A DNA stretch of 64,000 nucleotides from Parcubacteria group bacterium Gr01-1014_38. GTDB lineage: Bacteria; Patescibacteriota; Andersenbacteria; UBA10190; CAIZMI01. The stretch covers positions 70,988 to 134,987 of the forward strand of contig VMFP01000004.1 in NCBI GenBank assembly GCA_007376145.1. Reading direction: 5' to 3'. Both the position numbers and the translations under genes were made by a program. The notes beneath the pieces are model-generated. The model saw only the letters and a list, made by a program, of their open reading frames with translations, was not told the DNA's origin and did not search any database. Within the stretch, counting starts at the first letter, position 1; the number at the start of each line of letters is the position of its first letter. This document shows positions 34,490 through 56,472 of the stretch, one piece after another.

Positions 34490-36988
34490 GTGCGCATGAC
34501 ACCCGAACCTTCCTTCCCATGGCCGCGCATATCCGTGGCGGTCATCGTCGCCGTGGCGGTGCTCCTCGGCGTCGTCGCGCTTCGTCTTTCCCTCGTGCAG
34601 ACGGTCCTCAAAACGACGGCGCCGCACACGGACACGGATATCGAGCGCTTCGGTGGCTTGAAGACAGTCGGCCAGTCGTTTGTAAGCCCTTCAGACGGAC
34701 TCGCGGAAATTTCGTTCCGGCTCCGGTCGCCGCTTCCCGTACGATGGTTCCCGCTCTTCTTCCACCTTCGACACGGCCGCTTTGCCACGCGTGACCTCCG
34801 GACCGTCGTGCTCTTGCGGACGGACGTTGAACCGGACGGGGTCGTCACGACGCGTTTCGCCCCGCTCACGAAAAGCAGAGGGAAACCATACGCGTTCGTG
34901 CTTGACGCGCCGTACGCCCCGAGCGGGACATTCGCCGCCTCCCGGCAAATCGACGGATCACTTTACGGGGACGGAACACTGTTCCGGGGAACCGCCGTCC
35001 GCCAGGGAGATTTGGAATTTTCCCTGGGCACGCAATCCGCACTTGGGCGTGTGCTCTGGACCCGTTTCCTTGCGTGGGCAGCGGAGGTGCGCCGCGTCCC
35101 TGGGTTGATGGTGGCACTGTTGCTTGGCAGTACCGTGACGTTGCTTCTGACGATGGCGACAGTGTTTGGCGGCATCGTGACGCTCCTTGCGCTCTGGGCT
35201 CCTTGGTGGACGCAACGCCTCCACCGCACACGCGCGTGGCTTCTTCCGGTCGCACTGGGCACGCTCGCTGTTCTCCACATCGCGCTTCATCTCCCCTTCG
35301 CCCTCTCCTATCCGATTTCGAACGATGAGGGGGCATACCTCATGGACATCCAAAACCTCCGCGTTGGCGCATGGCCGTTTCTCCACACACTCGCGAAGGG
35401 ACCGCTGTTTCTTACGCTGTTCGCGCCGGTTGCATTCAGCTTTCCCGAAGCACTCCTCCCGGCGCGCTTGTTCATTGCCGTGACTTCGGCGTTGATCATT
35501 GTGCCGCTCTACCTCCTCGGCGTCCGCCACAGCGACAGAACTGCCGGGCTTTTCGCCGCTGCGCTGTGGGCGTTTTCTCCCGCCGTCATCGGGCAGACGA
35601 CACACGTCCTTCTCCAACCGCTCGCAGTGCTCCTGGTCGCACTGGCGCTTCTTACCATTTCTCGACAGCGCGATGACACTCCTTGGAGAACGAGATGGGC
35701 GTATGGCGGGGGCGCGCTGCTCGCCGCCGCCTACCTGACCCGTGTCTCTTCCGTCGCGTTCCTCCCCAGTGCGCTTCTCCTCCCGTTCGTGATGCATCCC
35801 CGGCGCGCGGCTTGGCGCACGGCTGCCCGCACTGGTCTCGGTTTCGCACTGACCCTTCTCGTCGCCGCCCTGCTTTTTCTCCCCATCCTCGGTGCGGTCC
35901 GAACGGCCATCACATTCAACGTGGAGGCGGTGCTCATCGGCCAGGCCCGAAACGCGGGTGGGCCCGACGTCGCCGCATTCTGGCCACCACGTGAACTCCT
36001 CGAGCGAATCAGTGCCTATGGAAGCACCCTGTTCCGGACGGGACTCCCGGTCGTGATACTCTGGTGGGCATTTCTCTTAAGTCAGGTCCGCACCGTACTC
36101 CGCCTGCCCGGATGGACCGCGGCGCTGGCATTTCTTGGTGGAGCGCTTCCCCTCCTTTTGGAACTCCAGCGCAACACATACTTCTTCACGGACGACAGCA
36201 ACGCGCCATTCGCGGCACTCGCTCGCATCGCCGCACCGGCGTTCGTCCTTCTGGTGGCCGCACGCCTCCTGACCCTACGCCGCGAGTCGGGAGACCCCGC
36301 CACACTGCGCCGCGCGTGGCGGGGTCTCCTCCTTGGGGGTGGAAGCTGGCTGGCGCTGACCGTCGTCTATGCATATTTCGGGCGTTTCCGGCAGCACTAC
36401 CACATGGAATTTCTTCTTCCGTATATCCTCGGTGCAGCACTCTTCCTTCGGGAGATTCTTGTGGCCGAGAGCGGGCAGGCGCGGGCGCGCTGGCGCACGT
36501 TCGCCCGCCGGGTGCTTGGGCCGCTCGTCGCCGGGGCGCTCGCCGCCGCGACCTTTCTCCTCTACACGCCGACGAAAACGCAATCACACACGGGATCGAT
36601 CGCTGTCGCGACCGCCCACCGCGTCGCGGACATCATCGCATCCGTTTCGGGACCGAGGGAAGAAATCCTCACCGCCCAGGGAATCTTTCCCTTCCTCGCT
36701 GGCCGTTTTCTCCCGTTCGGCGCCTCGCACCCCGGCTGGTACCTCGAAGAACGCGTTGGAACAGTGACGCCCGCCATGCGCCGTCTGTTCCTGCCTGACA
36801 AATCTGTCTTGAGGACGTATGTTCGCGACAAGCCGATCCGCCTCGTCGCGATCGACCGCCGGACGTGGGAAGTCTACTTCCAATTCGACGCAGACATGCG
36901 TGCGCTCGTCGCGGAGTACTTCAAGCTCCTCGCGGAAGTTCCGAATCCGTCCGAGGAACAACCGGTGGAAATTTGGATCCGAAAATGA
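34490..36988 (+). CDS. GT-C fold membrane glycosyltransferase, ArnT/PMT_2-like
   Basis: 832 aa. It has YPISNDEGAYLMDIQN (DE motif) and many TM helices. Confidence 0.6.
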   Translation: MRMTPEPSFPWPRISVAVIVAVAVLLGVVALRLSLVQTVLKTTAPHTDTDIERFGGLKTVGQSFVSPSDGLAEISFRLRSPLPVRWFPLFFHLRHGRFATRDLRTVVLLRTDVEPDGVVTTRFAPLTKSRGKPYAFVLDAPYAPSGTFAASRQIDGSLYGDGTLFRGTAVRQGDLEFSLGTQSALGRVLWTRFLAWAAEVRRVPGLMVALLLGSTVTLLLTMATVFGGIVTLLALWAPWWTQRLHRTRAWLLPVALGTLAVLHIALHLPFALSYPISNDEGAYLMDIQNLRVGAWPFLHTLAKGPLFLTLFAPVAFSFPEALLPARLFIAVTSALIIVPLYLLGVRHSDRTAGLFAAALWAFSPAVIGQTTHVLLQPLAVLLVALALLTISRQRDDTPWRTRWAYGGGALLAAAYLTRVSSVAFLPSALLLPFVMHPRRAAWRTAARTGLGFALTLLVAALLFLPILGAVRTAITFNVEAVLIGQARNAGGPDVAAFWPPRELLERISAYGSTLFRTGLPVVILWWAFLLSQVRTVLRLPGWTAALAFLGGALPLLLELQRNTYFFTDDSNAPFAALARIAAPAFVLLVAARLLTLRRESGDPATLRRAWRGLLLGGGSWLALTVVYAYFGRFRQHYHMEFLLPYILGAALFLREILVAESGQARARWRTFARRVLGPLVAGALAAATFLLYTPTKTQSHTGSIAVATAHRVADIIASVSGPREEILTAQGIFPFLAGRFLPFGASHPGWYLEERVGTVTPAMRRLFLPDKSVLRTYVRDKPIRLVAIDRRTWEVYFQFDADMRALVAEYFKLLAEVPNPSEEQPVEIWIRK

Positions 36989-37125: not shown

Positions 37126-37992
37126 CTAGCCCCGGCTGCGCACGATGAGATCGGCGATCAGACCCATGAGTCCAATTTGAATTCCGACGACGACAAGCAC
37201 GATGCTGGCATCGGAGATGTTTCGCTCGAGCGTGAGGGTGCGAGCCATGTTGGCGATGCCGAGTCCCAAAAACAGGAGGCTGGGGACCGCGAAGAATCTT
37301 AAGGGGCGAAAATACGTCACGATGCGAACGATGAGCGTCAAGAAGTTCGGAAACTCCTGGAACAGACCGCGTCGAAGGGTGATGGTGGATTTCCCGACGC
37401 GCGGCGCGTAGACGACGGGCACCCACCGAACGCCGAGTTTGTTTGTCAGCGCGGCGAGCGTCGCCGTCGTCGTGAACGAGAAGCCGTCGGGAAACAGATG
37501 GAAGAATCGCTCAACGAATTCTCGTCGCATCACGCGCATGCCGGAGTTGAGATCCGGAATGCGCCGACCGACGAGAAACGCCGCCAGTGCGGAAACGATC
37601 ACCTTTCCGGGACGCCGCAGCAGCGGAAACGCCGCGACGTTCCCAACGCGAACGCCGACGACCATCTCGACACCGTCGGTCAACGTCTCCAGGAGGCGTG
37701 GGAAGTCATCCACCGGATACGTACCGTCCGAGTCAATGATGCCAAGGAGGTCGCCGCGCGCAGCGCGGATACCGGTTTTCAGCGCCGCCCCATACCCGCG
37801 GTTCTCCGGGTGGCGGACGACCATCACCGCCGAATGCCGACGAAGAATTTCTGGAGTGTTGTCGGTAGAACCGTCGTCCACGACAAGAATCTCCGACGGC
37901 ATGGAAAGCCTCTCGCGCATACGGAGAAGCCCCGCCAGACTTTTCTCGAGTCCTTGGGCCTCGTTGTAGGTCGGCACGATAATGCTGAGCAC
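37126..37992 (-). CDS. GT2 polyprenol-phosphate glycosyltransferase (GtrB/CsbB-like) with C-terminal TM helices
   Basis: LSIIVPTYNEAQG...ILVVDDGSTDNT...IDSDGTYP, plus two C-terminal hydrophobic helices. Confidence 0.8.
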   Translation of the reverse strand: MLSIIVPTYNEAQGLEKSLAGLLRMRERLSMPSEILVVDDGSTDNTPEILRRHSAVMVVRHPENRGYGAALKTGIRAARGDLLGIIDSDGTYPVDDFPRLLETLTDGVEMVVGVRVGNVAAFPLLRRPGKVIVSALAAFLVGRRIPDLNSGMRVMRREFVERFFHLFPDGFSFTTTATLAALTNKLGVRWVPVVYAPRVGKSTITLRRGLFQEFPNFLTLIVRIVTYFRPLRFFAVPSLLFLGLGIANMARTLTLERNISDASIVLVVVGIQIGLMGLIADLIVRSRG

Positions 37993-40951: not shown

Positions 40952-43287
40952 TGGGCACACTCCCGGCCCGGTGGATGCCACTCGTGCTCGCGATGGTCTT
41001 CGGAAGTGCCATCGCGATCAATGCACACACGCTCCAAGTCGGGCGCGCCGACCATCACGTTGTCCCGCGCACGCGGGCAGACGACCGCGTCATCGTCCCG
41101 CCGGGAGGACGCGTTCGTCAAACCGCCCGTCCGAGCGGGGAATTACTGAACGCCTTCACCGTCCTCCTCATTCCTGACGATCTTCCCCCGCACCGACCAC
41201 GAGCACGGCTCACGGTCGAGGACCGCCGCGGCACCATCCTCGCGGAATCCTCCTCGGCCAGACAGCAAACCGATCAACAGGGCGCGACGCTGGAATTCCA
41301 GCTCGTTCCGCCGGTCGCCCTTCCGAAGACCTTCGTGACATTCATCATCGAAAACCGCGGGCCGAAGGCCTTCCACCTCGCGACGGCACCGGACGATGCG
41401 TACGAAAATGGCACGCTGGAGCAGGCGGACGGCGAGCCCCAGCACCGGGATCTCGTCTGGGGCTTTGCCACACCGACACGGGCTTCCCTCCCCACACGCA
41501 TTGGTGCTTCTCTGGCGGCGGCCCTGACGTTGGCCTGGGGCGTGCTCGAGAGTACCCGCTGGAAAACGCCCGGCATCTGGCGGGCCGCCGGCGTCCTGGC
41601 AGTGCTCGCGGTTCCTGCGGGCATGCTCGGTGTCCTCGCTGACCCTGCGGCGTGGGGAATTTCGGACTGGGACCTGTACTTCACCACGCATGACCTGTAC
41701 CGCGCGGCTCTCCTCCGCTTCCACCAAATTCCTTTCTGGAATCCCGCGGTATGCGGTGGAACCGCCGGCCTCGCCGATCCCGAATTTCCGGTCTTCGGGC
41801 CTGGGTTTCTGCTTGAGCTCCTCGCGGGCGTTCCGTGGGGACTCCGGCTGTCGCTCCTCGGCCACCTGGCGACCGGAGGACTCGGGATGCTGCTGCTCGG
41901 ACGCGCCGTGGGACTGTCCGCACGAGGGTCCTTCCTGGCGGCGCTCGTGGCGTTCACGAGCTCATCCATCCCTCTGCGATTCGTGGAGGGACACGTTTCG
42001 TGGTTCGCGGTGACCTGGATCCCGTGGGTGGTGTGGGCGTGGATCAGAGCCTATCGTCGCCAGTCGGGGACGGTTCTCCCGGCAGTGTTCCTCGTGCTGA
42101 TGTTGTTCGAAGGAGGCATCTATCCGCTCTTCTATCTGCTCGGCGGCTTCGCCCTCTGGCCGTGGCTCTTGAAAGACCGCCGGGCGGCGCTCCTCACGTC
42201 CGTACGCGCGGTGCTGTGGACGACGGGCCTCGCAGGAATCAAGCTCCTTCCCACGCTGCAATGGGTACAGACCTACCAAGACCAGGTGTTTGCGACCTCC
42301 GCCTTCACCTTCCCCCACCTGTGGCAGATCTTTCTCGGTCGGCACCTCCATGGGGCCGACGTTTTCCCGCACCAGGGCGGCGGCTGGCACGAGTATGGGT
42401 CGTACCTGGGCCCGATGGTGCTCATCCTGCTCGCGCTCGGGAGTACGCGCGCGAAGACCTCACGGATCGTCCGGGCACTCTTCGTGGTGGCGCTCTTCGG
42501 TCTGATCGTTTCCTCGCTTGGGCCCTGGCTGGCACCAGTCCTCGATACGCTTTCGATCCTTCCCCGGTCGAATCTTTCCCGACTCGTCCTGGTGGTGACC
42601 TTGACAGGAGCCCTGCTTGCCGGATTCGGGTTCGACCGACTCCTGCGCTTCTTCCCGCACCGACAGGCGAGACTCGTCAGCGTCGTCGTCGTCAGTCTCA
42701 TTGCCCTTGACCTCTTCACGCTTGCCGTCCCCATCTCTTTCCAAGCATTCCGTGTCCCACCGCTCGGACTCTCCGTGCGCGCGCCGTCGCCGCTTCTGCA
42801 TACCAAGGATCGCCACGAGATCCGGATTGACGGCACGGATTACCCGCGGATGTACGCCAACGCCCGCGCGGGCTTCGGCTCTCTCGCTGCGTGTACACCG
42901 ATCGGACCACGGCCGGCAGTCGCGGATTGGCGAGAGCTCGCGACACCGACCGGCGTGACGGTCGCCGACGCGGACGCTCGGGCGACCCTCGATGCCTGGA
43001 CACCCAACCGCATGGTCGTTCGCGTGACGACACCACGACCCACGACGGTGACGCTCCAGACCAACGCTGCCCAAGGTTGGCAGGTCAATGGGAAACCACT
43101 CCCGGAAACGCGCGGCCTTCTCCGGACCACCGTCCCCGCTGGCGAACAGGCACTCGTGTTCACCTACCGACCACCGGGGCTTCCGACAGGCATCGCGGTA
43201 AGTGTCATCACGCTTCTTCTGGCGCTCAAGTCTCACCACCCTAACACCAAAAATTCGGGAGCCACTGCGCTACACTCTCGCGTATGA
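40951..43287 (+). CDS. YfhO-like polytopic membrane protein
   Basis: ...DWDLYFTTHDLYRAALLRFHQIPFWNPAVCGGTAGLADPEF... The same loop motif occurs in the ORF at 51057. There are many TM helices. Confidence 0.5.
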   Translation: MGTLPARWMPLVLAMVFGSAIAINAHTLQVGRADHHVVPRTRADDRVIVPPGGRVRQTARPSGELLNAFTVLLIPDDLPPHRPRARLTVEDRRGTILAESSSARQQTDQQGATLEFQLVPPVALPKTFVTFIIENRGPKAFHLATAPDDAYENGTLEQADGEPQHRDLVWGFATPTRASLPTRIGASLAAALTLAWGVLESTRWKTPGIWRAAGVLAVLAVPAGMLGVLADPAAWGISDWDLYFTTHDLYRAALLRFHQIPFWNPAVCGGTAGLADPEFPVFGPGFLLELLAGVPWGLRLSLLGHLATGGLGMLLLGRAVGLSARGSFLAALVAFTSSSIPLRFVEGHVSWFAVTWIPWVVWAWIRAYRRQSGTVLPAVFLVLMLFEGGIYPLFYLLGGFALWPWLLKDRRAALLTSVRAVLWTTGLAGIKLLPTLQWVQTYQDQVFATSAFTFPHLWQIFLGRHLHGADVFPHQGGGWHEYGSYLGPMVLILLALGSTRAKTSRIVRALFVVALFGLIVSSLGPWLAPVLDTLSILPRSNLSRLVLVVTLTGALLAGFGFDRLLRFFPHRQARLVSVVVVSLIALDLFTLAVPISFQAFRVPPLGLSVRAPSPLLHTKDRHEIRIDGTDYPRMYANARAGFGSLAACTPIGPRPAVADWRELATPTGVTVADADARATLDAWTPNRMVVRVTTPRPTTVTLQTNAAQGWQVNGKPLPETRGLLRTTVPAGEQALVFTYRPPGLPTGIAVSVITLLLALKSHHPNTKNSGATALHSRV

Positions 43288-43508: not shown

Positions 43509-45107
43509 ATGACGAGCCCCGTACTCCCTGCTCCCTTCTTGGCATTGAGTCGTGTCCCATGGACCCGAGCTCGAAAAGCTTCGTTCCGACTGTTCTCTAC
43601 GGTACTCCCGTGGATGACGATCGCGGCCTTCGCGTACGCGTATGGGCGCCTTGCTCTGCTGAACGAGGCACACCTCAACAATGGGCTCGATCTCGGGATC
43701 CTCCACCAACTTGTCTGGCGCATCAGCCGGGGATCGCTGCCCGAGAGCAGTCTGAAGGGATTTATCCTCTGGGGCGACCATGCCAACTTCCTTCTGTACG
43801 TCCTCGTCCCCTTCTACCGACTCTTTCCGGACGTTCGGACCTTGCTCGTGTCGCAAGCGGTCGCCGGCACCATCGCCGCCTGGCCGCTCTTCCGCGTTGC
43901 GTGGGCGGCCACGCGGAACGCATTCTTCGCTTACGTGATCCTGTTCGCATCGCTGCTGTTCTGGGGCCTGCAAAATGCGTTGGACTTCGACGTTCACGCG
44001 CCCATCTTTGTCATCGCCCCCTTGGCATGGTTTCTCTACGGACTCTACTTTCGCCGCCCGGTACTCACCGGAGGCGCACTGGCGGCGGGCCTGTTGGCAC
44101 AGGAGGACGCGGCAGCCATGTTTGCCGCCACTGGTATCTTTCTCCTCTTCACGCGACGCCGTCGCTGGGGCGTCTGGATCGCGCTGACGTCAGTCGTCTA
44201 CCTCCTCGTCATTGGCTACCTCGTCATGCCCCGCTACACCCCAGGCGGAACGCCCTTGGTGCATTTCGACATCGGCGAATACCCGGGCGGGCCGGTCCGG
44301 AGGACGTTCGGTGCACTCACTCACCCCGCGCGAACGTTCCGGATGGCAACTGACCATCCCGAAAAAGTAGACACGCTGAAGAGTCTCTTTCGGGCGTGGG
44401 GCTACCTCCCGCTTTTTTCGCCGTTCACCCTCGTCTCGTTTCTTCCATCCTTCATCTCGCGCTTTCTCTCCCTCGAAGACCTGCGCTGGGTCCGCGCCTA
44501 TCACTACAATGCGCCCACCTTTCCCTTGTTCGCGTTCGGCGCCATCTTGGTGACCGCGCGGATTTCCCGTTGGGTCACGAAAGGTATTGCCCAGCGCCTG
44601 ACCCCGTTGGTCGCAAGCACCGCGTGCGCACTCCTCGTCGCCGCCGGAACCTACGCCTCCTCAATCCGGAATCGAGATCTGCCGTTGTGGAAGCTCGCCA
44701 ACGCGCGTTTCACCGATCGCCCCTACTTCCCGGAACATGCGGCGCACTTGGTCCGCGGAATACGAGGAGTGATTCCACCGAACGCTGCCGTCTCTGTCGC
44801 CAGCGGCTTTGTCGGCATGTTTAGCAACAGAAAGCGCGTCCATGTTTTCCCGAACCTCCCGTCTACCGGCGTACCCACGTGGATCGTGACGAGTGACCAA
44901 TTTAATACGTGGCCCTTGGCGAAGGGAGAAATGGCCGAGGCCATTGATCGTCTCCGGTCCGATCCCGCGTATGAAGTTATTTGGGACGAGTACGCCATCG
45001 TCGTCGCTAAGCCGCGCCCGCGGGACAGAGGGGCGCAACGTCCGCCGTCGGCACCCTCGCTTCGCGCGGCCCCGAATGCCGACCGCCCGCCAAGCGCTGA
45101 AGAGTGA
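43509..45107 (+). CDS. DUF2079-like polytopic membrane protein (putative GT-C-type glycosyltransferase)
   Basis: The N-terminus ...LNEAHLNNGLDLGILHQLVWRISRGSLPES matches the DLGI..Q..W signature I associate with DUF2079. There are about 10 TM helices. Confidence 0.45.
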   Translation: MTSPVLPAPFLALSRVPWTRARKASFRLFSTVLPWMTIAAFAYAYGRLALLNEAHLNNGLDLGILHQLVWRISRGSLPESSLKGFILWGDHANFLLYVLVPFYRLFPDVRTLLVSQAVAGTIAAWPLFRVAWAATRNAFFAYVILFASLLFWGLQNALDFDVHAPIFVIAPLAWFLYGLYFRRPVLTGGALAAGLLAQEDAAAMFAATGIFLLFTRRRRWGVWIALTSVVYLLVIGYLVMPRYTPGGTPLVHFDIGEYPGGPVRRTFGALTHPARTFRMATDHPEKVDTLKSLFRAWGYLPLFSPFTLVSFLPSFISRFLSLEDLRWVRAYHYNAPTFPLFAFGAILVTARISRWVTKGIAQRLTPLVASTACALLVAAGTYASSIRNRDLPLWKLANARFTDRPYFPEHAAHLVRGIRGVIPPNAAVSVASGFVGMFSNRKRVHVFPNLPSTGVPTWIVTSDQFNTWPLAKGEMAEAIDRLRSDPAYEVIWDEYAIVVAKPRPRDRGAQRPPSAPSLRAAPNADRPPSAEE

Positions 45108-45259
45108 GAGAAAGCCTTGGGTACTCGACGGCTCACGTGGCAAAGAAAATAGTATGGACCACGGGATGTGCTATTTTTTACTCCTCGCGCCCGGCGGCGG
45201 AGGCACTCCTCGCTACTGCGCACGCTCCGTGCTAGCGTGAGACGTCAGTCGTTTTGCTC

Positions 45260-46975
45260 ATGCCCGACGCGCGCGCCATCTACGCGGTATCCGCCTTCCG
45301 GAGCCTGCCGCGGCTCTTGAGCCTCCTGGACCGGAACCCGCTCTCCCCCACCTACGGCTGCTTCCACCGCGACTACTGGCTGTACCGGACGTCGGACTTT
45401 CCGGACGCCGTTCGGCAATTCGGCGTGCATGCACTCGCACTCGCGTACGCAGCGGATCTTCCGCCGAATCCGTACCGAGGCAATGCGCAAATCCGCAGAT
45501 GGGCGATTGCCGCGCTCGACTTCTGGGCAACGATCCAGCATGCGGACGGCTCGTGTGATGAGTTTTATCCCTTTGAGCGCGGATGGGTCGGACCAACGGC
45601 GTTCACCACGTATACCAGCAGCGAGTCCCTCCGCCTGTTGGGCGCGGAAGTTCCGACCGCTGTTGGGAAGCGCGTGAAGACTGCGATCCGCCGCGCGGCG
45701 CAGTTCATCGCGGCGGGTGAAGCGGAGCACGACCATCTCGCGAACCATCATGCGATGGCATTTCTCGCGGTCTCCACGGCCGCCGATGTGCTCAACGACG
45801 ACGAGATTCGCGCCGGGCTTCCGAAACTCTTCGACGGATTTCTCCGGTACTGCACCGCGGAGGGATGGTGCCTGGAGTACGACGGTGCTGATCCGGGGTA
45901 TCTCTCTGCCACGGTTTCGTTTCTCGGAAAAGTCTATGCGCGGCATCCTTCTCCCGAACTCCGAGAGGTTCTGGAGAAGGCCGTTGAGTTCTGCAGCTAT
46001 TTTGTCTACCCGGACGGCTCGTACGCCGGCATGCTTGGGAGCCGAAACACCCTGCATTTCTACCCCCATGGCTTCGAGCTCCTCGCGCCGGAGATACCGC
46101 TTGCGGCGAGCGTGGCGAACCGGATGGCTTCCGCACTCGCCGAGGGGAAACTCGTGCCTCCAGAGATCATGTCCGATCGGTACGTACACTACCGTGTTCC
46201 GGAATTCCTTTTGGCGGCGCTGGAGACCCGCCCGCGGCCAGCAACGCTCACGCCACTCCCCTACCAACGCGCGCCATTCGTCCGGGTGTTTCCCCACGCC
46301 GGCATGACCGCTGCTGCTCACGGACCGGCGTACACCGTTGCGAACCTTGCAAAGGGTGGCGTCGTCAAGAGCTTCGAACGAGAACAGGGACGCCTACTCA
46401 TCAACGACAGCGGCTGGGTGGGAACGCTGGAAGACGGGCGCACGGTGACGTCGCAGTGGATCGATCCGCACTACACGCAGAACATCCAGGAAAACTCCTG
46501 GACGGTGCGCGGACAGTTGCGGGTGGTCCCATCGGCAAAGCCCTTCACACTCTGGACGCACCTCGCCTTTCGCCTGGCCCTCGCGCTGGTCGGCTGGTCG
46601 CCGCGCGCCGCGCACTGGCTCAAAACTTGGATCCGCAAAAGTCTTATTCTCGACAGCCGTCCCGTTGCCTGTATGTTCGAGCGGCGCATTGAACTCTCAA
46701 AAACGCAGCTGAAGATCACCGACGAACTACAGAGTGACGTGCAATTCCGGCAACTCCTCCTCGGCGGAGAACTTCCGGTGCGCTACGTCCCCCAGAGTCG
46801 CTTCTTCCAACCGCACGAACTGGAAAGCCGCAGTCGCATTCTCTCCGACGAAGAACTTGCGCGGGTGAATGCGGGAGAACTCTTCCAGAGTGTGCGTACG
46901 ATTGATGTCGAGACACCGCAGGAGCGCACGGCTGCCGAAGAGGAGCCTGCGAATCTTCACGTTCCCTCTTTCTAG
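45260..46975 (+). CDS. hypothetical soluble protein, 572 aa, no TM or signal peptide, family not recognised
   Basis: The long ORF matches the local codon bias. Internal segments read HADGSCDEFYPFERGW, EYDGADPGYLSATVSFL and YFVYPDGSYAGMLGSRNT. ATG at 45260; TTG at 45254 is an alternative start. Confidence 0.5.
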   Translation: MPDARAIYAVSAFRSLPRLLSLLDRNPLSPTYGCFHRDYWLYRTSDFPDAVRQFGVHALALAYAADLPPNPYRGNAQIRRWAIAALDFWATIQHADGSCDEFYPFERGWVGPTAFTTYTSSESLRLLGAEVPTAVGKRVKTAIRRAAQFIAAGEAEHDHLANHHAMAFLAVSTAADVLNDDEIRAGLPKLFDGFLRYCTAEGWCLEYDGADPGYLSATVSFLGKVYARHPSPELREVLEKAVEFCSYFVYPDGSYAGMLGSRNTLHFYPHGFELLAPEIPLAASVANRMASALAEGKLVPPEIMSDRYVHYRVPEFLLAALETRPRPATLTPLPYQRAPFVRVFPHAGMTAAAHGPAYTVANLAKGGVVKSFEREQGRLLINDSGWVGTLEDGRTVTSQWIDPHYTQNIQENSWTVRGQLRVVPSAKPFTLWTHLAFRLALALVGWSPRAAHWLKTWIRKSLILDSRPVACMFERRIELSKTQLKITDELQSDVQFRQLLLGGELPVRYVPQSRFFQPHELESRSRILSDEELARVNAGELFQSVRTIDVETPQERTAAEEEPANLHVPSF

Positions 46976-46980
46976 CGTCC

Positions 46981-47934
46981 GTGGCCGACGTTCGACTTGC
47001 CACAATCAGCGGGTGGTCCGAGCGCCGCGGACAACTGCGCGGGGTTGTTCTTCTTGTCATCACTGCGCTCATTTTTTATCTCCTGTTCCGTCGCATTGAC
47101 CTCATGTCAGTGCTCCAAACACTCGCAACAATTCCGTTCCGAACCTGGCGTGCGGCGTTTCTTCTCACGATTTCCTTTCCCATGCTCTCCGCGCTTCGGT
47201 GGCACTACACACTGAAGGCAATCGGCCATCGCGTCTCGATACTCCGCTGCTTGAAAATCATCTTGGGGACCTCACCGATCAGCGCGATTGCGCCCTCGAA
47301 AGCCGGCGATCTCTTGAAAGCGTTGAGCCTGCGCGGAGAAATCAGTCTCCTCGAGGTGGGCGGAACAGTGTTGGCAGAGCGTGTACTGGACGTGATTGTT
47401 CTCGCGGCCCTCGCACTGGCTGGCGGCATCGTCGTTGGAAACTCGCTCATCACGCGGCTCGCAGTCGCGATCGTCGGAGCTGGCATCGCGGGACTGCTTC
47501 TCCTCCCCATGCTTGTCGCCTCAATCAAAAAGCCGAAGCTCCGCGAAAAACTTGAGCGGTTGATTCGCGTCCTTCACGCGCTCCGCGCACAACCATCTAA
47601 AGCGTTCGCTATCGCGCTTTTTACCGTTCTCAATTGGCTGGCGTCCATCGTCCAGACACACTTGCTTCTTCTCGCCGTCGGCGCGCATCCGCCCTTTTGG
47701 CTCACGGCAGCGGCACTTCCCATCGCCATCTTCATCGGGCTCATCCCCATCACCATCGGCGGCATGGGGACGCGCGATGCCGCGCTCGTCACGCTTCTTG
47801 CGTCAGCCGCAACTGCACCACAAGCACTGTCTGTCGGATTGCTCTACTCCTTCTTCGGCTATTGGCTTCTTGCGATTCTCGGCCTGCCGTTCATGAAGAG
47901 CGCGCTATTCAGAAACCGGAACCAGCGTTCTTGA
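46981..47934 (+). CDS. UPF0104 / lysylphosphatidylglycerol-synthase-TM-domain family membrane protein ('flippase-like domain')
   Basis: 317 aa with about 8 TM helices. The ...WRAAFLLTISFPMLSALRWHYTLKAIG... and GIGLIPITIGGMGTRDAALV segments match this family's pattern. Confidence 0.55.
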   Translation: MADVRLATISGWSERRGQLRGVVLLVITALIFYLLFRRIDLMSVLQTLATIPFRTWRAAFLLTISFPMLSALRWHYTLKAIGHRVSILRCLKIILGTSPISAIAPSKAGDLLKALSLRGEISLLEVGGTVLAERVLDVIVLAALALAGGIVVGNSLITRLAVAIVGAGIAGLLLLPMLVASIKKPKLREKLERLIRVLHALRAQPSKAFAIALFTVLNWLASIVQTHLLLLAVGAHPPFWLTAAALPIAIFIGLIPITIGGMGTRDAALVTLLASAATAPQALSVGLLYSFFGYWLLAILGLPFMKSALFRNRNQRS

Positions 47935-48000: not shown

Positions 48001-48029
48001 TTGACGAAACGCGGGCCTCGCTGTATTGT
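48001..48029 (+). promoter_or_regulatory. candidate sigma70-like promoter for the two-gene unit
   Basis: TTGACG (48001-48006), a 17-nt spacer, then TATTGT (48024-48029). It lies 60-90 nt upstream of the ATG at 48092. Confidence 0.25.
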
Positions 48030-48091
48030 ACCGGGTCGTTCCTTAACAACCATTCCGTCACCGCACTTTGCGACGAGCGAGGAGGTCAGAC

Positions 48092-48856
48092 ATGCCGGTA
48101 CCAGAAACCAGATATCTCTTCAGCCGCAGCGAGCGAGGTATCTTCGCGGAAATTTACTTTCCCAAGCGAGCGGCCTATTACGGCGCGATCTTCAATGCCC
48201 TGCGGCATGGGTATGATGAGCATGAGGTCAAAACGTATTTGCGGCGCCACGTAGTCGCATTGCTGAACGAGTTTCAGACCTTTCCCGACCTGTTCAATCC
48301 CCACCGATACACTGCGGCTAGGCCTCGGCGCACGCCACCCTCGACTGCCGAAGCGCTGGAGCGTATCGACATGTACCAGTCCCCCTTCAAGGGCTGGTCG
48401 GTGTACTCGGTTGATGGCGTCTTTTTCGACGCCCAAGGGGAACCTACCGAGGAAGCTACCCAGGTAGTGCGGGTCATGTTCCGGTTCGATAGCTCGTTTA
48501 CGGAACAGGCAGCTGCCGCTGGTTGCCCGGATGTGCTGCGGTCGATTCTGTTTTGGGTCATCAGCCAGCAAGGCCGCCTGGACGAGCATAAAGTATGGAG
48601 CAAAGCCGAACAGGCGCAGTTCATAGCCCGGCACAGACCGTGGCCGAAAAGGAAACGGCTGTTTGCCCAGCAGCACTTCCAAGCCATTGCCTCCGAAGCC
48701 GCCAAGTGGGTGGATGACCGCGCCCTATTCGTTTTTGCCTACCTCGTCCGCAAGTTCTGGGGGCAGGTGGTGGAAGAACGCCTCTATGAAGAGGAGATCT
48801 GGGTGATCAACCTCTTTGATCTGGTGGTAAATGTTGTGAAGCGGACTGAACAGTAA
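48092..48856 (+). CDS. hypothetical protein (254 aa), no recognisable family, lower-GC
   Basis: A strong GAGGAGG Shine-Dalgarno sits 7 nt upstream of the ATG. The protein has no TM segments. Its sequence reads MPVPETRYLFSRSERGIFAEIYFPKRAAYYGAIFNALRHGYDEHEV.... Confidence 0.5.
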   Translation: MPVPETRYLFSRSERGIFAEIYFPKRAAYYGAIFNALRHGYDEHEVKTYLRRHVVALLNEFQTFPDLFNPHRYTAARPRRTPPSTAEALERIDMYQSPFKGWSVYSVDGVFFDAQGEPTEEATQVVRVMFRFDSSFTEQAAAAGCPDVLRSILFWVISQQGRLDEHKVWSKAEQAQFIARHRPWPKRKRLFAQQHFQAIASEAAKWVDDRALFVFAYLVRKFWGQVVEERLYEEEIWVINLFDLVVNVVKRTEQ

Positions 48857-50346: not shown

Positions 50347-51060
50347 ATGCGAAACGTGGTAACGGGGTCAACCGGTTCGGGTACGGACGACCGCACGCCG
50401 TCTGGGGAACCTTCGTTCCTGCTTCGAGGGATCTTTCACGTTCATACGAGCGCGTCGAAAGACTGCCGAATGTCGGCCGAAGCGGTCGTTTCCAAATGCA
50501 TTGATGAGGGCGTGGACGTCCTGGCAGTGACGGACCACCACGAGATTTCCGGCGCACAAGCCCTCCAACGGCGTGCGCCCTTCCAAGTGATTGTCGGAGA
50601 GGAAATCCGCGCGGCCGAAGGAGGAGAAATCATCGGTCTCTTTTTGAAGGAGAAAATCTCTCAAGGACAACACGCGCGAGACGTGGTGCGGGAAATCCGC
50701 GCCCAAGGCGGCCTCGTCTATCTCCCGCACCCTTTTGATCGAATCCGAACAAAACAGTGGCCTGACGCTCTCCGCGCAGCGCTTCTTGAGACTGCGGACA
50801 TTATGGAAGTCTTCAATGCGCGGAGCATGACGCGCACGTCGGAACGAAAAGCGCGGGAAGCCGCCGAGCGACTCGGGAAGGTCGCGTGCGTCGGCGCGGA
50901 TGCACACTTCCCCAGAGAAATCGGCCCAACGGCGGTGCTGCTTCCTCCCTTCTCCACGCCGGAGTCACTCCTCGTCAGTCTCCGAACGGCGCGCTTCCGG
51001 TGCCAGCGAAGTCCGCGCTGGGTGTTTCCGGCCACCAAACTTGTTGAGCTCCTGCGATGA
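50347..51060 (+). CDS. PHP-domain metal-dependent phosphoesterase
   Basis: ...RGIFHVHTSASKDC...LAVTDHHE...GLVYLPHPFD...GADAHFPREIG is a PHP His/Asp ligand pattern. The 5' part of the listed ORF (49900-50346) is antisense to the methyltransferase and was discarded. Confidence 0.6.
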   Translation: MRNVVTGSTGSGTDDRTPSGEPSFLLRGIFHVHTSASKDCRMSAEAVVSKCIDEGVDVLAVTDHHEISGAQALQRRAPFQVIVGEEIRAAEGGEIIGLFLKEKISQGQHARDVVREIRAQGGLVYLPHPFDRIRTKQWPDALRAALLETADIMEVFNARSMTRTSERKAREAAERLGKVACVGADAHFPREIGPTAVLLPPFSTPESLLVSLRTARFRCQRSPRWVFPATKLVELLR

Positions 51061-53636
51061 GAAACACCCTGCAGTGGTTCGGTGGAGCGGCGGTACTCCT
51101 TATCGCTGGCATTGTTCTGCACGCGCTCATCCTCGTTGATGATCTTCCGGATTTGACGCACGATGTTGCTGACGACCCGGAAAATTTCGTCGAGGTGTGG
51201 GGGACACGCACGCTTGGTCAGACGATTCGGCCTCCGCTGCCAAGCATGAGCGGCATTGCGCTGTCTCTCCACCGCCGACCGGGAGTGCATCTCTCCGGGT
51301 ACATTATCCTCCACATTCGGGAATCCCCAGACGCCACAAACGATCTCCGCATTGTCCGGCTCCCGGTCGTGTTTGTCCGAGGAGATCGCTTCACCGAGTT
51401 CCCCTTTCCTCCTCTGAACACGCGATCTCGAGAAGCCCTCTATCTCTTCATTGAATACCCCGACGGGACCAACGATCGTCCGCTGCTTCTCCGCGCGGAG
51501 CAGCGGGAGGTGGATCGGTCCAAGATCGAAAGAATCGTCGATTATGCGGGCGGAACACTCATCCGCGACCACCGGGCTGCCGCCGGCGATCTCGCCTTTC
51601 AACTCTTGAAGCGCGCACGTCGGCCCTTCGGTCTTCAAGTCATCGGCGCAGCACTCCTCGGAGGGATCAGCCTGCTGATCGGGGGCATGCTGTCCATTGC
51701 TGCACGTCGGCAGTGGGTAAAAACATCATGGATCGTCCCCGCGGTTCTTCTCGTCCTCGGCGCCGGACTGCCGCTCATCTTTTACCTCCCCCTCCTTCTG
51801 CAACCCTCCTTTCTCGGCGTGGGAGACTGGGATATGAACACCACGCTCCACGCGGCGGCGGAACGCGCACTCCTCCGCGAGCAGACGTTCCCGGGGTGGA
51901 ACCCGTATCTCTGCGGAGGGACGCCCCTCGCCGCGTTCCCGGAGGCACCGGTCTTCTCTCCCTTCTTCACCACTGTGCTGCTCGGAGGACCGGTAATCGG
52001 TTTTAAGATGAATGTTCTTCTGCACGGTGCGCTCGGGTTCTTGGGCATGCTCTTGTGGCTGCGAAAGGGGTGGAACCTGTCGTGGCTCGCGGCCTTCGTG
52101 GGTGCGGCCGTCGTCGTTTTTTCTTCTTTTATGGGACTGCATCTCGCCGCCGGCCACTCGCGGAAAGTCGCGGCCGCATGGATCCCATGGATTCTCTTGT
52201 TCTTCCAACGCGCCTGCGCGTCGGAGAACCCGCCGACGGGAGCTCGCGAGCAACACCGCGCGCATCGCTGGCGGTCCCTCCGCTTCGCCGCGCCCGCCGG
52301 AGGATTTCTCGCTCTCATGCTTCTGGACGGAAGCGTGTACCTGTCCATCTACTCCGCGACCTTCGTCGTCTTGGTGGGCATCTTGGCGAGTCTCAATGAG
52401 CGACGTGTACTTCCGATCGCCGCCAGTCTCGTCACCGTCCTCCTCGGTGGACTCCTCGCGGGAGTACACCTCGTGCCGACCGCATATTCCCAAGCCACGC
52501 TCCAGACGGTCTTAACCAACGAAACGGCGCCGGTGCCTCTCCAGGCGTTGTGGCACGTGTTCCTCGATCCCAATCAGCGTGACGACGCGCAGAAATTTGC
52601 CGGTCAGACGCAGCCCTGGCTTGAGTATGGCGCGTACGTCGGTGTCGTCCCCGCGCTCTTGAGCGTGCTCGGGATCTTCACCGCGTGGCGCGCGGTGCGC
52701 CCGTGGGCCGGCGCCAGCCTCTTCTTCCTTCTGGTCCTGGTTTCGTCATCGGTGCAGCGCGGGATCGAGGCAGTGCCAATACTCGGCGATCTCCGCAATC
52801 CGCAGCGCATGGCGGGAATGGTGACGATCGCCATCGGTCTCACCGCCGCACTGGGAACCGAGCGCGTGATGCGGTGGCTTCTCGGGACCGACCGCGCGGG
52901 TTCCCTCTCGTCCTCACCGCCGTCGCTCCATCGCGCCGTTGGCGCCGCTCTCGGCGTCCTCACCACCATCACCATTGGGCATCTCATCTTCGTGAACACG
53001 GAAACGTTGGCGGGAACCTTCGTCGTCCCGCCACCTCCGGCACAGGAGGAACCATTTCGCCAGGGGTGGGCGCGGAATCGCCTCGTGGGGATCGAAGACT
53101 CATTTGTCTTCACTATGGAAAATACGTTGCGAAACCGCGGTTCCATCAACCGCTGCTCGGTCGCGGGCATTCGACCAACGGGCGCGCTCCGCATGCCACC
53201 ACCACGTGACCCCGGGGGAGAAGTTGCCGCGGAGTTCCAGGACGCTCCGTATCGTGGAGAGGCATTTCTTCTCGAAGGGCAAGGCACCGCCGCAGTCGAA
53301 GAGCAAACCACGAATCGCGTCCGCGTCCGGTACCAGACGTCCTCGCCCGCTCTGCTCGCGCTCAACCAGAATTACCATCCAGGGTGGAGAACCTCGCGCC
53401 GATCCACGGAGCAGGATCGTCCCCGAGAAGAACCGGCCACCTTCGTTCAGGGTCTGGTGGCCACCGTGCTCCCACCGGGATCGGGAACGGTGACTTTCTC
53501 GTACACCACGCCAGCATTGAGAGCAGGCATGCTCACCACGGCGTTCGGGATGCTCGCTGCGCTGTGGCTGTGGCATCGCAGCACACTCCCGCGGACTCGA
53601 CGAGCAGAGGGTCGCGATCCTTCTGCACACCGGTGA
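51057..53636 (+). CDS. YfhO-like polytopic membrane protein
   Basis: ...GDWDMNTTLHAAAERALLREQTFPGWNPYLCGGTPLAAFPEAPVF... is a loop motif shared with the ORF at 40951. Its start overlaps the PHP gene stop by 4 nt. Confidence 0.55.
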   Translation: MRNTLQWFGGAAVLLIAGIVLHALILVDDLPDLTHDVADDPENFVEVWGTRTLGQTIRPPLPSMSGIALSLHRRPGVHLSGYIILHIRESPDATNDLRIVRLPVVFVRGDRFTEFPFPPLNTRSREALYLFIEYPDGTNDRPLLLRAEQREVDRSKIERIVDYAGGTLIRDHRAAAGDLAFQLLKRARRPFGLQVIGAALLGGISLLIGGMLSIAARRQWVKTSWIVPAVLLVLGAGLPLIFYLPLLLQPSFLGVGDWDMNTTLHAAAERALLREQTFPGWNPYLCGGTPLAAFPEAPVFSPFFTTVLLGGPVIGFKMNVLLHGALGFLGMLLWLRKGWNLSWLAAFVGAAVVVFSSFMGLHLAAGHSRKVAAAWIPWILLFFQRACASENPPTGAREQHRAHRWRSLRFAAPAGGFLALMLLDGSVYLSIYSATFVVLVGILASLNERRVLPIAASLVTVLLGGLLAGVHLVPTAYSQATLQTVLTNETAPVPLQALWHVFLDPNQRDDAQKFAGQTQPWLEYGAYVGVVPALLSVLGIFTAWRAVRPWAGASLFFLLVLVSSSVQRGIEAVPILGDLRNPQRMAGMVTIAIGLTAALGTERVMRWLLGTDRAGSLSSSPPSLHRAVGAALGVLTTITIGHLIFVNTETLAGTFVVPPPPAQEEPFRQGWARNRLVGIEDSFVFTMENTLRNRGSINRCSVAGIRPTGALRMPPPRDPGGEVAAEFQDAPYRGEAFLLEGQGTAAVEEQTTNRVRVRYQTSSPALLALNQNYHPGWRTSRRSTEQDRPREEPATFVQGLVATVLPPGSGTVTFSYTTPALRAGMLTTAFGMLAALWLWHRSTLPRTRRAEGRDPSAHR

Positions 53637-55296: not shown

Positions 55297-56472
55297 GTGC
55301 GGTTTGCGTGTATTGAATTCACGACCAAGGCTGGAAAGATCTGGCGTCCGACGCCGGAGCGGCCAAACTACCTCTGCGATCCGGAGAGGGAAATTGACCC
55401 GACCAGCTTTGGGTGTTACACCTCCGCGCTGCATGGCGAGCACGTGCCTCTCACCGGCCTGATCTACGGGTCACTCGACCGTCCGCCCTCCCGGTTCCAG
55501 CGAGCCCGACATAATCTCGCCCGGCGCACGCGCGGGACCTTTGCCCCGTACGATCTCTCCTACCTGAAACAGTTCGATGTGCTCCTGGTCATCTACCAGC
55601 TCAGCAACGATGGCGAACTCGTCCGTTTCGTGCAGCGGGTCCGAACGGAACTGCCGAACATTCTCCTCGTGAGCTGCTCGTCACCACCCTTCGGCCGCCT
55701 GCGGGAGTACTGGAAGGATCACCCCGAGACCATCGTTCGGTACCAGACATTCCTGAACTCTACGCACCTGAACATGAATGTCTGCCGCGCGACCGTCCCG
55801 TTCACCCGACTCCTCACCACGACGCCGTCCGTCTACTTGCCGCAACCGTATCCGGTGGAATACGCCGTGGCATGCGCGCAGAAGACCTCGAAGCGTCGTC
55901 CGATCGTGTACGTGGCGGGCGACACGGTCCGACCCGATATCGTGACGGGTCACCTCATCGCCAACGTGCTGCAGCAGCACCACCCGGAGCTCCACATCCG
56001 GGTCACAAAGACGCCTGGGTTCTCCTTGAACACCGCGTTCCTGAAGGGGACACGTTTCGAGGTCGTACCGTTTCGGCCCTGGGCAGACCAAGTGCACGAA
56101 CTCGCCAGTGTCCGCCTCGTGATCAACACCGATCTCTGGTGGACGCGCGGCCGTGTTCCCGTGGACTGTGCCGCCGCCGGAGTCCCGTGCGTGGGGACCA
56201 CGAGCGACGGACAGACGGAACTCTGGCCCGAGCTCGCTTCTTCAGAGAGCACGGACGTCGACCGCCTGATTGCGCTTGCCGAGCGAGCGCTCACCGACGA
56301 CGCCTTTCGAGCAGCGGTGGTGTCGAAAGCCCAGCGCCGCCTCACCCAGTATGCCTATGGTCCGACCATCCAGCGCTTTGCTGGTGCGGTCGAACTCACG
56401 CGCGCCGGACGGTTGGCCGCATGGCGGGATCCGGTCTGGAAAGACGATATGCTCGTATGGCCGACTCCATGA
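55297..56472 (+). CDS. hypothetical protein; C-terminal half weakly GT-B-like (possible divergent glycosyltransferase)
   Basis: The ORF has a GTG start. ...PVDCAAAGVPCVGTTSDGQTELWPEL... resembles the donor-binding region of GT4 enzymes. The N-terminal half has no recognisable family. Confidence 0.35.
   Translation: MRFACIEFTTKAGKIWRPTPERPNYLCDPEREIDPTSFGCYTSALHGEHVPLTGLIYGSLDRPPSRFQRARHNLARRTRGTFAPYDLSYLKQFDVLLVIYQLSNDGELVRFVQRVRTELPNILLVSCSSPPFGRLREYWKDHPETIVRYQTFLNSTHLNMNVCRATVPFTRLLTTTPSVYLPQPYPVEYAVACAQKTSKRRPIVYVAGDTVRPDIVTGHLIANVLQQHHPELHIRVTKTPGFSLNTAFLKGTRFEVVPFRPWADQVHELASVRLVINTDLWWTRGRVPVDCAAAGVPCVGTTSDGQTELWPELASSESTDVDRLIALAERALTDDAFRAAVVSKAQRRLTQYAYGPTIQRFAGAVELTRAGRLAAWRDPVWKDDMLVWPTP

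Follow-up and report, generated by a model that had tools for sequence, protein, structure and literature searches.

A gene at positions 45260 to 46975 of a 64,000-nucleotide stretch of DNA from Parcubacteria group bacterium Gr01-1014_38 (called the window here) encodes a soluble protein; X denotes this protein and its family. On balance, we favor a role for X as a cytoplasmic modifier of a lipid-linked sugar before its export. This role is assigned at the level of a gene cassette, in which X is preceded by a GT2 glycosyltransferase and followed by a flippase in genomes of many phyla. Judged from its predicted structure, X is a fold relative of the lyases, and of one epimerase, that combine a toroid with a beta-sandwich.

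X is certainly a real gene and not a chance reading frame. The open reading frame (ORF) runs without interruption from an ATG at 45260 to a TAG at 46973-46975 (571 codons plus the stop); the ORF listing also has a TTG two codons 5′ of the ATG, at 45254, as an alternative start. The product is 100% identical to the NCBI entry [quoted passage not shown] and has 1,517 relatives in the database at an E value of ≤1e-3. The 120 best matches listed all have E values of <1e-197 and identities of 55-73%, across phyla. With an exhaustive HMMER search we found 1,766 X clusters (50% identity; E, ≤1e-3), 709 of them at an E value of ≤1e-30. A preliminary description of this DNA, made from its letters alone, had named a frameshift as grounds for doubting the protein, and there is none. 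The same description had X lacking a signal peptide and transmembrane (TM) segments. Both points hold: the best 19-residue Kyte-Doolittle mean is 1.16 (the usual threshold for a TM segment is 1.6), and residues 4-20 are not signal-peptide-like but form the first toroid helix (predicted local distance difference test [pLDDT], ~90). The three motifs it quoted lie at residues 94-109 (HADGSCDEFYPFERGW), 206-215 (EYDGADPGYL), and 247-264 (YFVYPDGSYAGMLGSRNT). A 358-amino-acid antisense ORF (45245-46321, - strand) was rejected as a high-GC shadow ORF. On the opposite strand of the X interval, the matching frame is packed with stop codons. A scan for promoters and terminators around the gene gave nothing exceeding the shuffled expectation.

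We assembled 80 X loci from GTDB species genomes of more than 15 phyla and scored their ORFs with phmmer. The loci came from Saccharibacteria, Falkowbacteria, Paceibacterota, Anaerolineae, Dehalococcoidia, SAR202, Chloroflexaceae, Truepera, Bacteroidales, Deltaproteobacteria, Myxococcales, Gemmatimonadota, Acidobacteriota, Nitrospirota, Verrucomicrobiota, Latescibacterota, Pelagibacteraceae, Marinimicrobia, and others. An orthologous GT2 gene was found directly upstream of X, on the same strand, at 61 of the 70 loci with enough flanking sequence. Downstream of X there was a UPF0104 gene at 46 of 68 loci. A further 9 carried X, then a sulfotransferase (Sulfotransfer_1; E, 1.9e-27), and then a divergent UPF0104 (E, 4.6e-26), which brings the count to at least 55 of 68. 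The sulfotransferase variant would imply a sulfated product. In the called-gene tables, GT2 and X, like X and UPF0104, lie 3 to 4 nucleotides apart or overlap by 8 to 11 nucleotides, which indicates an operon. When neighboring ORFs were clustered all against all, an unbiased procedure, only X, GT2, UPF0104 or a methyltransferase, and PMT_2 were widely shared. Antisense ORF clusters that appeared conserved within X (52 loci) and within GT2 (29 loci) were discarded as shadow ORFs. The preliminary description had suggested a search of conserved neighbors; that search yielded this cassette of GT2, X, and flippase, with or without a GT-C glycosyltransferase, which the description itself had missed.

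Several loci show the cassette in isolation. In L004 it forms a stand-alone operon, a GT2 gene followed by an X-methyltransferase fusion and UPF0104, with unrelated flanks. The order GT2, X, UPF0104, and a polytopic membrane protein is found in Alphaproteobacteria that have been cultured: Caenibius tardaugens NBRC 16725, Antarcticirhabdus, and, on a chromid, Phyllobacterium. The only X match in a tblastn search of plasmids was on the Phyllobacterium chromid, with the same cassette. The fourth gene of these operons (L086, 10582-12285; L087, 10578-12254; L085, 11465-12751) encodes a protein of ~430 to 570 amino acids with 5 to 11 hydrophobic segments, a conserved acidic motif (DDAR/NDAL) after the first TM segment, and, in the longer L086 and L087 versions, a soluble C-terminal part. 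It matched no Pfam family and is possibly a so far unrecognized GT-C-like transferase. A PMT_2-type GT-C gene lies downstream of the cassette at 11 or more of 49 loci (behind X and the flippase in L003, L007, L024, L054, L056, L065, L068, L077, L082, L084, and others).

X is also joined physically to its partners. In P0091 it is fused to the N terminus of the UPF0104 flippase, in 32 of the 120 best database matches a class I S-adenosylmethionine (SAM)-dependent methyltransferase follows at its C terminus, and in P0258 it is fused to a GNAT domain. Elsewhere the methyltransferase is a neighboring gene; methyltransferase, sulfotransferase, and PMT_2-type GT-C genes are optional additions to the cassette. 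The activities fused or adjacent to X use cytoplasmic cofactors: SAM, 3′-phosphoadenosine-5′-phosphosulfate (PAPS), and acetyl coenzyme A. The gene order, these cofactors, and the fusion to the flippase N terminus place X at the cytoplasmic side of the membrane.

The X-linked GT2 proteins have a Glycos_transf_2 GT-A domain followed by 1 to 3 C-terminal TM helices, as expected of a GT2 that acts on polyprenyl phosphate. Their best NCBIfam matches are AglJ, the dolichyl-phosphate-hexose transferase, PpgS, and ArnC, all under the equivalog cut-offs, so that these matches assign the predicted class, that of polyprenyl-phosphate sugar synthases, and not the specificity. A dedicated flippase is encoded with X, as UPF0104 in the window and at the loci counted above, and its flippase activity is predicted by analogy with MprF. 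At two loci of the Dehalococcoidia type, a DedA/VTT gene takes the UPF0104 slot (L002, 10766-11422; L007, 10448-11125), between X (or X and a methyltransferase) and a PMT_2 GT-C gene. This substitution fits the slot as that of a lipid-carrier translocase; we take DedA to be a family linked to polyprenyl phosphate. The conserved cassette suggests that the substrate of X is a lipid-linked sugar at the cytoplasmic face and not a polysaccharide. X has neither the extracytoplasmic location nor the catabolic context of a degradative lyase.

We next consider the fold. The structure of X was predicted with AlphaFold2 (AF2) from an alignment of 32 relatives (mean pLDDT, 85; predicted template modeling score, 0.88). 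The model is an all-helical (alpha/alpha)6 toroid over residues 1-322 and then a beta-sandwich over residues ~335-558, with helices at 4-322 and strands at 340-558. A toroid followed by an antiparallel beta-sandwich is the architecture of the PL8, PL12, PL15, PL17, PL21, PL33, PL35, PL39, and PL40 lyases, in which the active site sits where the two domains meet. In a whole-chain Foldseek search of the PDB, two-domain lyases and dermatan-sulfate epimerase 1 (DS-epi1) were retrieved with a probability of 1.0 and E values of 2e-9 to 1e-5. The lyases were of families PL8 (chondroitin AC, xanthan, and hyaluronate lyases), PL35 (GAGases), PL33, PL15 (exoHep), PL12 (heparinase III), PL17 (Alg17c), and PL39 (Dp0100), with entries 1rwa, 8khv, 8r6z, 6f2p, 6lja, 4mmi, 4nei, and 6jp4 matching the whole chain; human DS-epi1 (6hzn) matched at an E value of 1.1e-7. 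These matches, which come from the Foldseek search that the preliminary description had suggested, bear out its guess, made there on a weak resemblance, of a toroid carbohydrate-active fold of the heparinase II/III-like, lyase, or epimerase kind. No confident match to a noncarbohydrate family, which would have spoken against that guess, was found for X. The toroid alone matched PL8, GH154 beta-D-glucuronate dehydratase, AGE/cellobiose 2-epimerases, GH88/GH105, and linalool dehydratase about equally (E, 1e-4 to 1e-3). Hence, the fold does not by itself fix the chemistry, and it is only the two-domain arrangement of the model that points specifically to the lyase/epimerase group.

Scans of X against local copies of Pfam-A and NCBIfam gave no meaningful match, whether to a PL family or to any other, in line with the preliminary description, which could assign no family. 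A newer Pfam release, consulted as precomputed annotation, does tag the family as PF25840 (Ulvan_lyase_N); the tag is not marked weak for most members, is weak for P0119 and P0258, and is absent in the alphaproteobacterial branch. Among 64 homologues, Pfam gave weak Pec_lyase matches in 36 (best E, 1.9e-7), Lyase_8_N in 2 (E, 0.06), and other weak matches to LANC_like, TED, GH127, and C5-epim_C. Searches of PDB sequences with X, as a single sequence and as a profile, had no significant match, lyases included. The nonsignificant matches were of toroid type: the TED of complement C4, PL10 pectate lyase, squalene-hopene cyclase, and DS-epi1. DS-epi1 was the only lyase-fold entry reached by the profile (nonsignificant E, 0.062; profile positions 110-195), and it vanished when the profile was trimmed to residues 136-330.

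Conservation was examined in the same 64 homologues, which extend down to 26% identity. G33, W40, N162, E206, and D211 are invariant, and R37, D46, Q53, Q93, Y103, E106, W203, Y207 (62 of 64), Y214 (63 of 64), R262 (63 of 64), and T264 are nearly so; position 163 is His or Gln across the family. In the model, the conserved polar and aromatic residues lie in toroid loops or at helix starts. The conserved positions of the beta-sandwich are G366/G367, G385, K365, D383, R438, K455, and R475. A helical hairpin of about 40 residues (427-466) emerges from the beta-sandwich. Over the 64 homologues its net charge has a median of +7 and never falls below +3, against a charge of -4 for the whole protein, and 53% of it is hydrophobic; it is the most hydrophobic stretch of X yet lies under the TM threshold. 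We regard the hairpin as a candidate element for peripheral docking of X to the membrane.

These observations suggest the following sequence of steps. A membrane-anchored GT2 of the polyprenyl-phosphate type would load a monosaccharide onto a lipid phosphate in the inner leaflet. X would then dock via its cationic amphipathic hairpin and alter the sugar head group in the conserved toroid pocket. In some lineages, a methyltransferase, sulfotransferase, or GNAT protein fused or adjacent to X would decorate the product. The UPF0104/MprF-type flippase (46981-47934 in the window) would move the product to the outer leaflet, where GT-C enzymes (PMT_2, YfhO, or DUF2079) would transfer the sugar to an envelope acceptor.

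The chemistry of X is a more tentative matter. Since the anomeric carbon of such a substrate is blocked by phosphate, a cofactor-free toroid enzyme would plausibly carry out either C5 chemistry on a uronate or hydrolysis. From the fold and this chemical logic, abstraction of the C5 proton from a lipid-linked hexuronate, leading to C5 epimerization or 4,5-elimination, is the leading candidate and is possible, although we would not call it probable. For it, DS-epi1 and the GH154 dehydratase set precedents. An AsnB-like amidotransferase gene is found on the same strand within 8 kb of X at 11 of 86 loci and lies directly upstream of the X-GNAT fusion in L089. Enzymes of this class presumably amidate uronates in O-antigen clusters, which lends mild contextual support to uronate chemistry. 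We hold somewhat more loosely still the fullest form of the proposal, in which X would be the first lyase-fold enzyme to act on a lipid-phosphate-linked sugar, a polyprenyl-phosphate hexuronate C5-epimerase or 4,5-dehydratase at the cytoplasmic face, and would define a widespread five-part route (GT2, X, an optional methyl, sulfo, or acyl decorator, UPF0104, and GT-C). The hosts of the proposed route would be candidate phyla radiation (CPR) bacteria, Chloroflexota, Deinococcota, Bacteroidales, Deltaproteobacteria, SAR202, Pelagibacteraceae, and cultured Alphaproteobacteria.

Several findings weigh against this proposal or parts of it. Many cassettes have no adjacent GT-C gene, so their product could be a final membrane glycolipid. 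The flippase activity of UPF0104 has experimental support for MprF-type lipids only (10.1101/2022.03.11.483950). In the window itself the canonical order is broken: the GT2 orthologue is 7 kb off on the opposite strand, and no methyltransferase or sulfotransferase gene is adjacent. With the E. coli Ugd protein as the query, a UDP-glucose dehydrogenase was found near X at 2 of about 87 loci and was absent from the window. The toroid matches non-PL families, GH9 among them, as well as it does PL8. The catalytic set of the lyase toroids is an Asn that neutralizes the carboxylate (often Asn-His), a catalytic Tyr, and an Arg or His; N162, Y207, Y214, and R262 are only putative equivalents of these residues. 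Residues 335-558 contain no His conserved among the 64 homologues, and H452 is kept in close relatives only (Y, N, E, K, or R across the family). X thus lacks the beta-domain catalytic His and metal site of PL12, PL15, PL17, PL39, PL40, and DS-epi1. A catalytic His with an adjacent metal-binding His or Asp from the beta-sandwich defines the PL12, PL15, PL17, PL21, PL39, and PL40 lyases and DS-epi1 (PMC12915356 and general background). Finally, every source name in the X family is "hypothetical protein." Because this His/metal site and an extracytoplasmic location are both lacking, and because any lyase activity of X is putative, we do not file X in any PL family.

The alternative closest to our proposal keeps the cassette and changes its end point: the modified head group, carried by a phospholipid, diacylglycerol, or polyprenyl phosphate, would be a terminal glycolipid of the outer leaflet and not a donor for GT-C. 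We consider this unlikely but well worth keeping in view. Many loci consist of GT2, X (with or without a methyltransferase), and UPF0104 only, with unrelated flanks (L004, L008, L010, L013, L016-L018). Studied operons of a glycosyltransferase, a modifier, and UPF0104 yield end-product lipids (GlcN-PG from gpgSDF, PMC12713373; HNHDRG from hexSDF, PMC10128005), and UPF0104 has so far been tied to phospholipid translocation (10.1101/2022.03.11.483950). However, the X-linked GT2 resembles polyprenyl/dolichyl-phosphate sugar synthases and not the GT4 and GT28 enzymes of gpgS and hexS. PMT_2 GT-C genes follow the cassette at no fewer than 11 of 49 loci, the window is rich in GT-C, and the alphaproteobacterial operons close with a 7- to 11-TM protein bearing a C-terminal soluble domain. 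DedA, with its presumed link to polyprenyl phosphate, can moreover stand in for UPF0104. It is quite unlikely that X is instead a hydrolase, either an amidase or N-deacetylase of a lipid-linked N-acetylhexosamine (whose exposed amine the methyltransferase, sulfotransferase, or GNAT partners would then N-modify) or a glycosidase or proofreading hydrolase. For it speaks the precedent that the modifier is a deacetylase or deformylase in all analogues known to have been characterized: ArnD and NaxD, along with GpgD (PMC12713373) and HexD (PMC10128005). The invariant carboxylates E106, E206, D211, and E273 and H94/H163 could bind a metal or serve as a GH-type acid/base, the toroid matches GH88, GH105, GH9, GH154, and weakly GH127, and the fusion to GNAT in P0258 suggests that the substrate carries an amino group. 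That fusion is, however, a single case in another context, with an AsnB-like gene upstream and a CE4-like gene downstream; the two-domain structural matches are all lyases or the epimerase; and destroying the GT2 product within a tightly coupled operon would be futile. We also know of no sugar N-deacetylase with a toroid fold.

Three further explanations deserve much less credit. X could be an epimerase or dehydratase that acts on a soluble nucleotide sugar and makes the GT2 donor, with only an indirect link to the flippase. Although X is soluble and sugar-nucleotide-modifying genes are common in the surrounding islands, this is very unlikely, given the fusion of X to UPF0104, the conserved cationic amphipathic hairpin, the invariant order of GT2, X, decorators, and flippase, and the existence of minimal cassettes with no other sugar-nucleotide genes. 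To our knowledge, no nucleotide-sugar enzyme has the X fold. It is highly improbable that X is a noncatalytic adaptor that binds the sugar and passes the product of GT2 on to the decorators and the flippase. The fusions would suit a scaffold, and the catalytic residue set is putative; against this, roughly 25 polar and aromatic residues that are invariant or nearly so (N, Y, Y, R, E, and D among them) cluster on toroid loops in an active-site-like manner, and cassettes that have no decorator still retain X. Hardly credible at all, despite the fold matches and the PF25840 tag, is the view that X degrades polysaccharide as an ordinary lyase of the heparinase II/III, PL8, or ulvan lyase kind and lies in a glycan island by chance. 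X has no signal peptide or TM segment, is fused to SAM-dependent methyltransferases and to the flippase N terminus, and is strictly linked to GT2 and flippase genes rather than to polysaccharide utilization locus (PUL), transport, or GH88-type catabolic genes. Degradative lyases that have diversified by substrate do not typically show identities of 55-73% across phyla, X has no beta-domain His/metal site, and the PF25840 tag is weak or absent in some members. We rejected a classical secreted lyase on the location, fusions, and gene context of X. We concluded that modification of a lipid-linked sugar at the cytoplasmic face before export remains the best account of X.

In the window, the genes around X are of the kinds given by the preliminary description (DUF2079, UPF0104, and YfhO-like; Table 1). 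The UPF0104 gene starts 5 nucleotides past the X stop codon, and its product is the predicted flippase for the lipid-linked product of X. The GT2 gene at 37126-37992 reached 225-232 bits in comparison with the GT2s linked to X, where the remaining four GT2s of the window reached 25-95 bits, and is the window orthologue of the GT2 otherwise found upstream of X. The arrangement is rearranged, likewise in the closest relative, L005: DUF2079 occupies the upstream slot, and the tandem YfhO-like genes sit between GT2 and DUF2079. The DUF2079 protein could be one of several GT-C-type users of the flipped lipid-linked sugar.

Table 1. Coordinates of X, its domains, and associated features (window positions, except in the last row)
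Feature	Position	Strand	Remarks
Gene X	45260..46975	+	Intact ORF; 571 amino acids; soluble, cytoplasmic; predicted two-domain lyase/epimerase-like fold; large uncharacterized family (PF25840 Ulvan_lyase_N in newer Pfam)
X toroid domain	45260..46225	+	Nearly all family-wide invariant residues; domain-only model pLDDT 91
X C-terminal antiparallel beta-sandwich	46262..46933	+	Residues ~335-558; few conserved positions; no conserved His
Helical hairpin in beta-sandwich (~40 amino acids)	46538..46657	+	Residues 427-466; helices 431-444 and 448-464; cationic, amphipathic
UPF0104 / LPG_synthase_TM (MprF-flippase-like, "PplT")	46981..47934	+	PF03706 E 2.1e-40; TIGR00374 flippase-like domain; 6 hydrophobic segments
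GT2 with C-terminal TM segment (261-279)	37126..37992	-	Glycos_transf_2 E 1.8e-34
DUF2079 polytopic membrane protein, directly upstream of X	43509..45107	+	PF09852 E 1.4e-46
PMT_2-type GT-C membrane glycosyltransferase	34490..36988	+	PF13231 E 1.7e-7
Two tandem YfhO-like GT-C membrane proteins	37982-40951, 40951-43287	+	PF09586 E 6e-9 and 2.5e-4; C-terminal end of profile only
YfhO-like proteins in window	991-3387(-), 37982-40951, 40951-43287, 51057-53636, 58838-61255		
PMT_2 proteins in window	12358-14577(-), 14583-16112(-), 34490-36988		
Carbamoyltransferase	10389-12173	-	
Asn-synthase-like amidotransferase	18616-20517	-	
Sulfotransferase cassette loci (outside window)	L006 (3110-5036), L023, L026, L028, L035, L037, L049, L058, L063		Mostly Bacteroidales

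The window as a whole (991-61255) forms a single long glycan island, in which nine or more membrane proteins are of the GT-C type; it also encodes five GT2s, one GT4, two DegT aminotransferases, and MurJ and Polysacc_synt flippases. No tRNA genes were found in its 64 kb. After UPF0104 comes a 262-amino-acid soluble ORF (48068-48856, + strand) that has no TM segment and no Pfam or NCBIfam match, with a weak promoter-like site ahead of it at 48001-48029. Two overlapping 391-amino-acid ORFs in different frames (55297-56472 and 55872-57047, + strand) likewise match no family. As listed, the YfhO/PTPS_related ORF (51057-53636) and the MurJ ORF (53384-55240), both on the + strand, overlap by about 250 nucleotides; since Pfam matches MurJ only from residue 119 onward, its real start codon probably lies 3′ of the listed GTG. 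Paralogous sugar C-methyltransferases of the Methyltransf_13/14 type stand at opposite ends of the island (6783-8051, - strand; 61993-63282, + strand), and an enzyme of this type is also found near X in L001, L003, L005, and L081.

Some observations concern individual loci elsewhere. L089 (1-4314) encodes a divergent X (32% identity) with the C-terminal GNAT domain; the AsnB-like gene overlaps the start of X, and a CE4-like N terminus (polysaccharide deacetylase type) follows. This context differs from the GT2-flippase cassette. The sulfotransferases of the variant cassettes carry the PAPS motifs YPKCGRTW and RDPRD. Beside the Caenibius tardaugens cassette, L086 (12338-17239) has genes for CysN/APS kinase, a PAPS_reduct/CysD-like protein, an Inositol_P/CysQ-like phosphatase, a sulfatase, and PhoX. 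The presence of PAPS metabolism genes there is worth noting given the sulfotransferase variants, but it may be a coincidence.

The X family, with its 1,766 or more clusters at 50% identity and identities of 50-73% between phyla, is unnamed in databases yet is tied to GT2 and flippase genes as tightly as operon partners are. In a literature search we found no paper on PF25840 or on the X cassette and none on heparinase together with undecaprenyl phosphate and flippase. Solving X would provide a widespread "hypothetical protein" with a function, show which sugar modification numerous uncultivated lineages (CPR bacteria with their tiny genomes among them) place on the envelope, and give UPF0104/PplT flippases a defined substrate. 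X is possibly the second case, after dermatan-sulfate epimerase, of a lyase fold recruited for biosynthesis. The existence of cultured hosts (Caenibius tardaugens NBRC 16725, Phyllobacterium spp., Pararhizobium, and Aureimonas) makes its role directly testable.

Among known enzymes, the lyases of PL8, PL12, PL15, PL17, PL33, PL35, PL39, and PL40 share the domain order and overall fold of X. The order and spacing of Asn, Tyr, and Arg in the X toroid are reminiscent of the Asn/His/Tyr/Arg set of PL8, of which they may be counterparts. X is only ~10-14% identical to the PL lyases and smaller (571 versus 580-1040 amino acids). Unlike them, it is cytoplasmic, with neither a signal peptide nor a conserved beta-domain His/metal site, and is encoded in a biosynthetic GT2-flippase cassette and not in catabolic loci; its likely substrate is a lipid-linked monosaccharide and not a polymer. 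PL40 (Uly1040) has the same toroid and beta-sandwich architecture (PMC12915356). DS-epi1 (6hzn) is a lyase-fold enzyme that serves biosynthesis and not degradation, as we propose for X, but it works on a polymer in the Golgi lumen. Its His/Tyr/His triad presumably includes a beta-domain His, which is not conserved in X. The highest-identity toroid match of X (15-16%; E, 1.6e-4) is the GH154 beta-D-glucuronate 4,5-dehydratase BcGDH (9nwf, 9o4u). GH154 acts on glucuronides that are terminal or simple and whose 4-OH is free; BT_3677 dehydrates 1-O-methyl-beta-D-glucuronate via Tyr/Arg/Tyr (PMC12269599). GH154 is thereby a direct precedent for reactions on the glycoside of a single sugar, as lipid-phosphate-linked glucuronic acid would be. 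Unlike X, GH154 is single domain, catabolic, and PUL encoded, and no conserved residue of X corresponds to its third catalytic Tyr (H, Y, N, or F in column 266).

At the level of the operon, gpgSDF of P. aeruginosa (GlcN-PG; PMC12713373) and hexSDF of C. difficile (HNHDRG; PMC10128005) combine a synthase, a modifier, and UPF0104 to act on a membrane lipid head group. The X cassette shares with them UPF0104 and the three-part layout only: those operons have GT4- or MGDG-synthase-type (GT28) glycosyltransferases and CE4 or COG3233 deacetylases as modifiers, lack an X homologue, and make end-point lipids. The logic of the X cassette is that of ArnC-ArnD-ArnE/F-ArnT, of Francisella FlmF2-NaxD-FlmK, of mycobacterial DprE1/E2 with GT-C arabinosyltransferases, and of archaeal AglD/AglS. 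In the Arn, NaxD, and DprE pathways, a GT2 makes the polyprenyl-phosphate sugar, a modifier acts on it at the cytoplasmic face, a flippase moves it, and a GT-C enzyme uses it; candidates for each of these components are found around X. An archaeal neighborhood of GT2, UPF0104, and PMT/STT3-like genes has also been described (PMC5898192). The X cassette is hence the already known logic of sugar modification on a lipid carrier, with an uncharacterized modifier. It differs from the known pathways in having UPF0104 in place of ArnE/F or GtrA as the flippase and, in the modifier slot, the lyase-fold protein X in place of a deformylase, deacetylase, or oxidoreductase.

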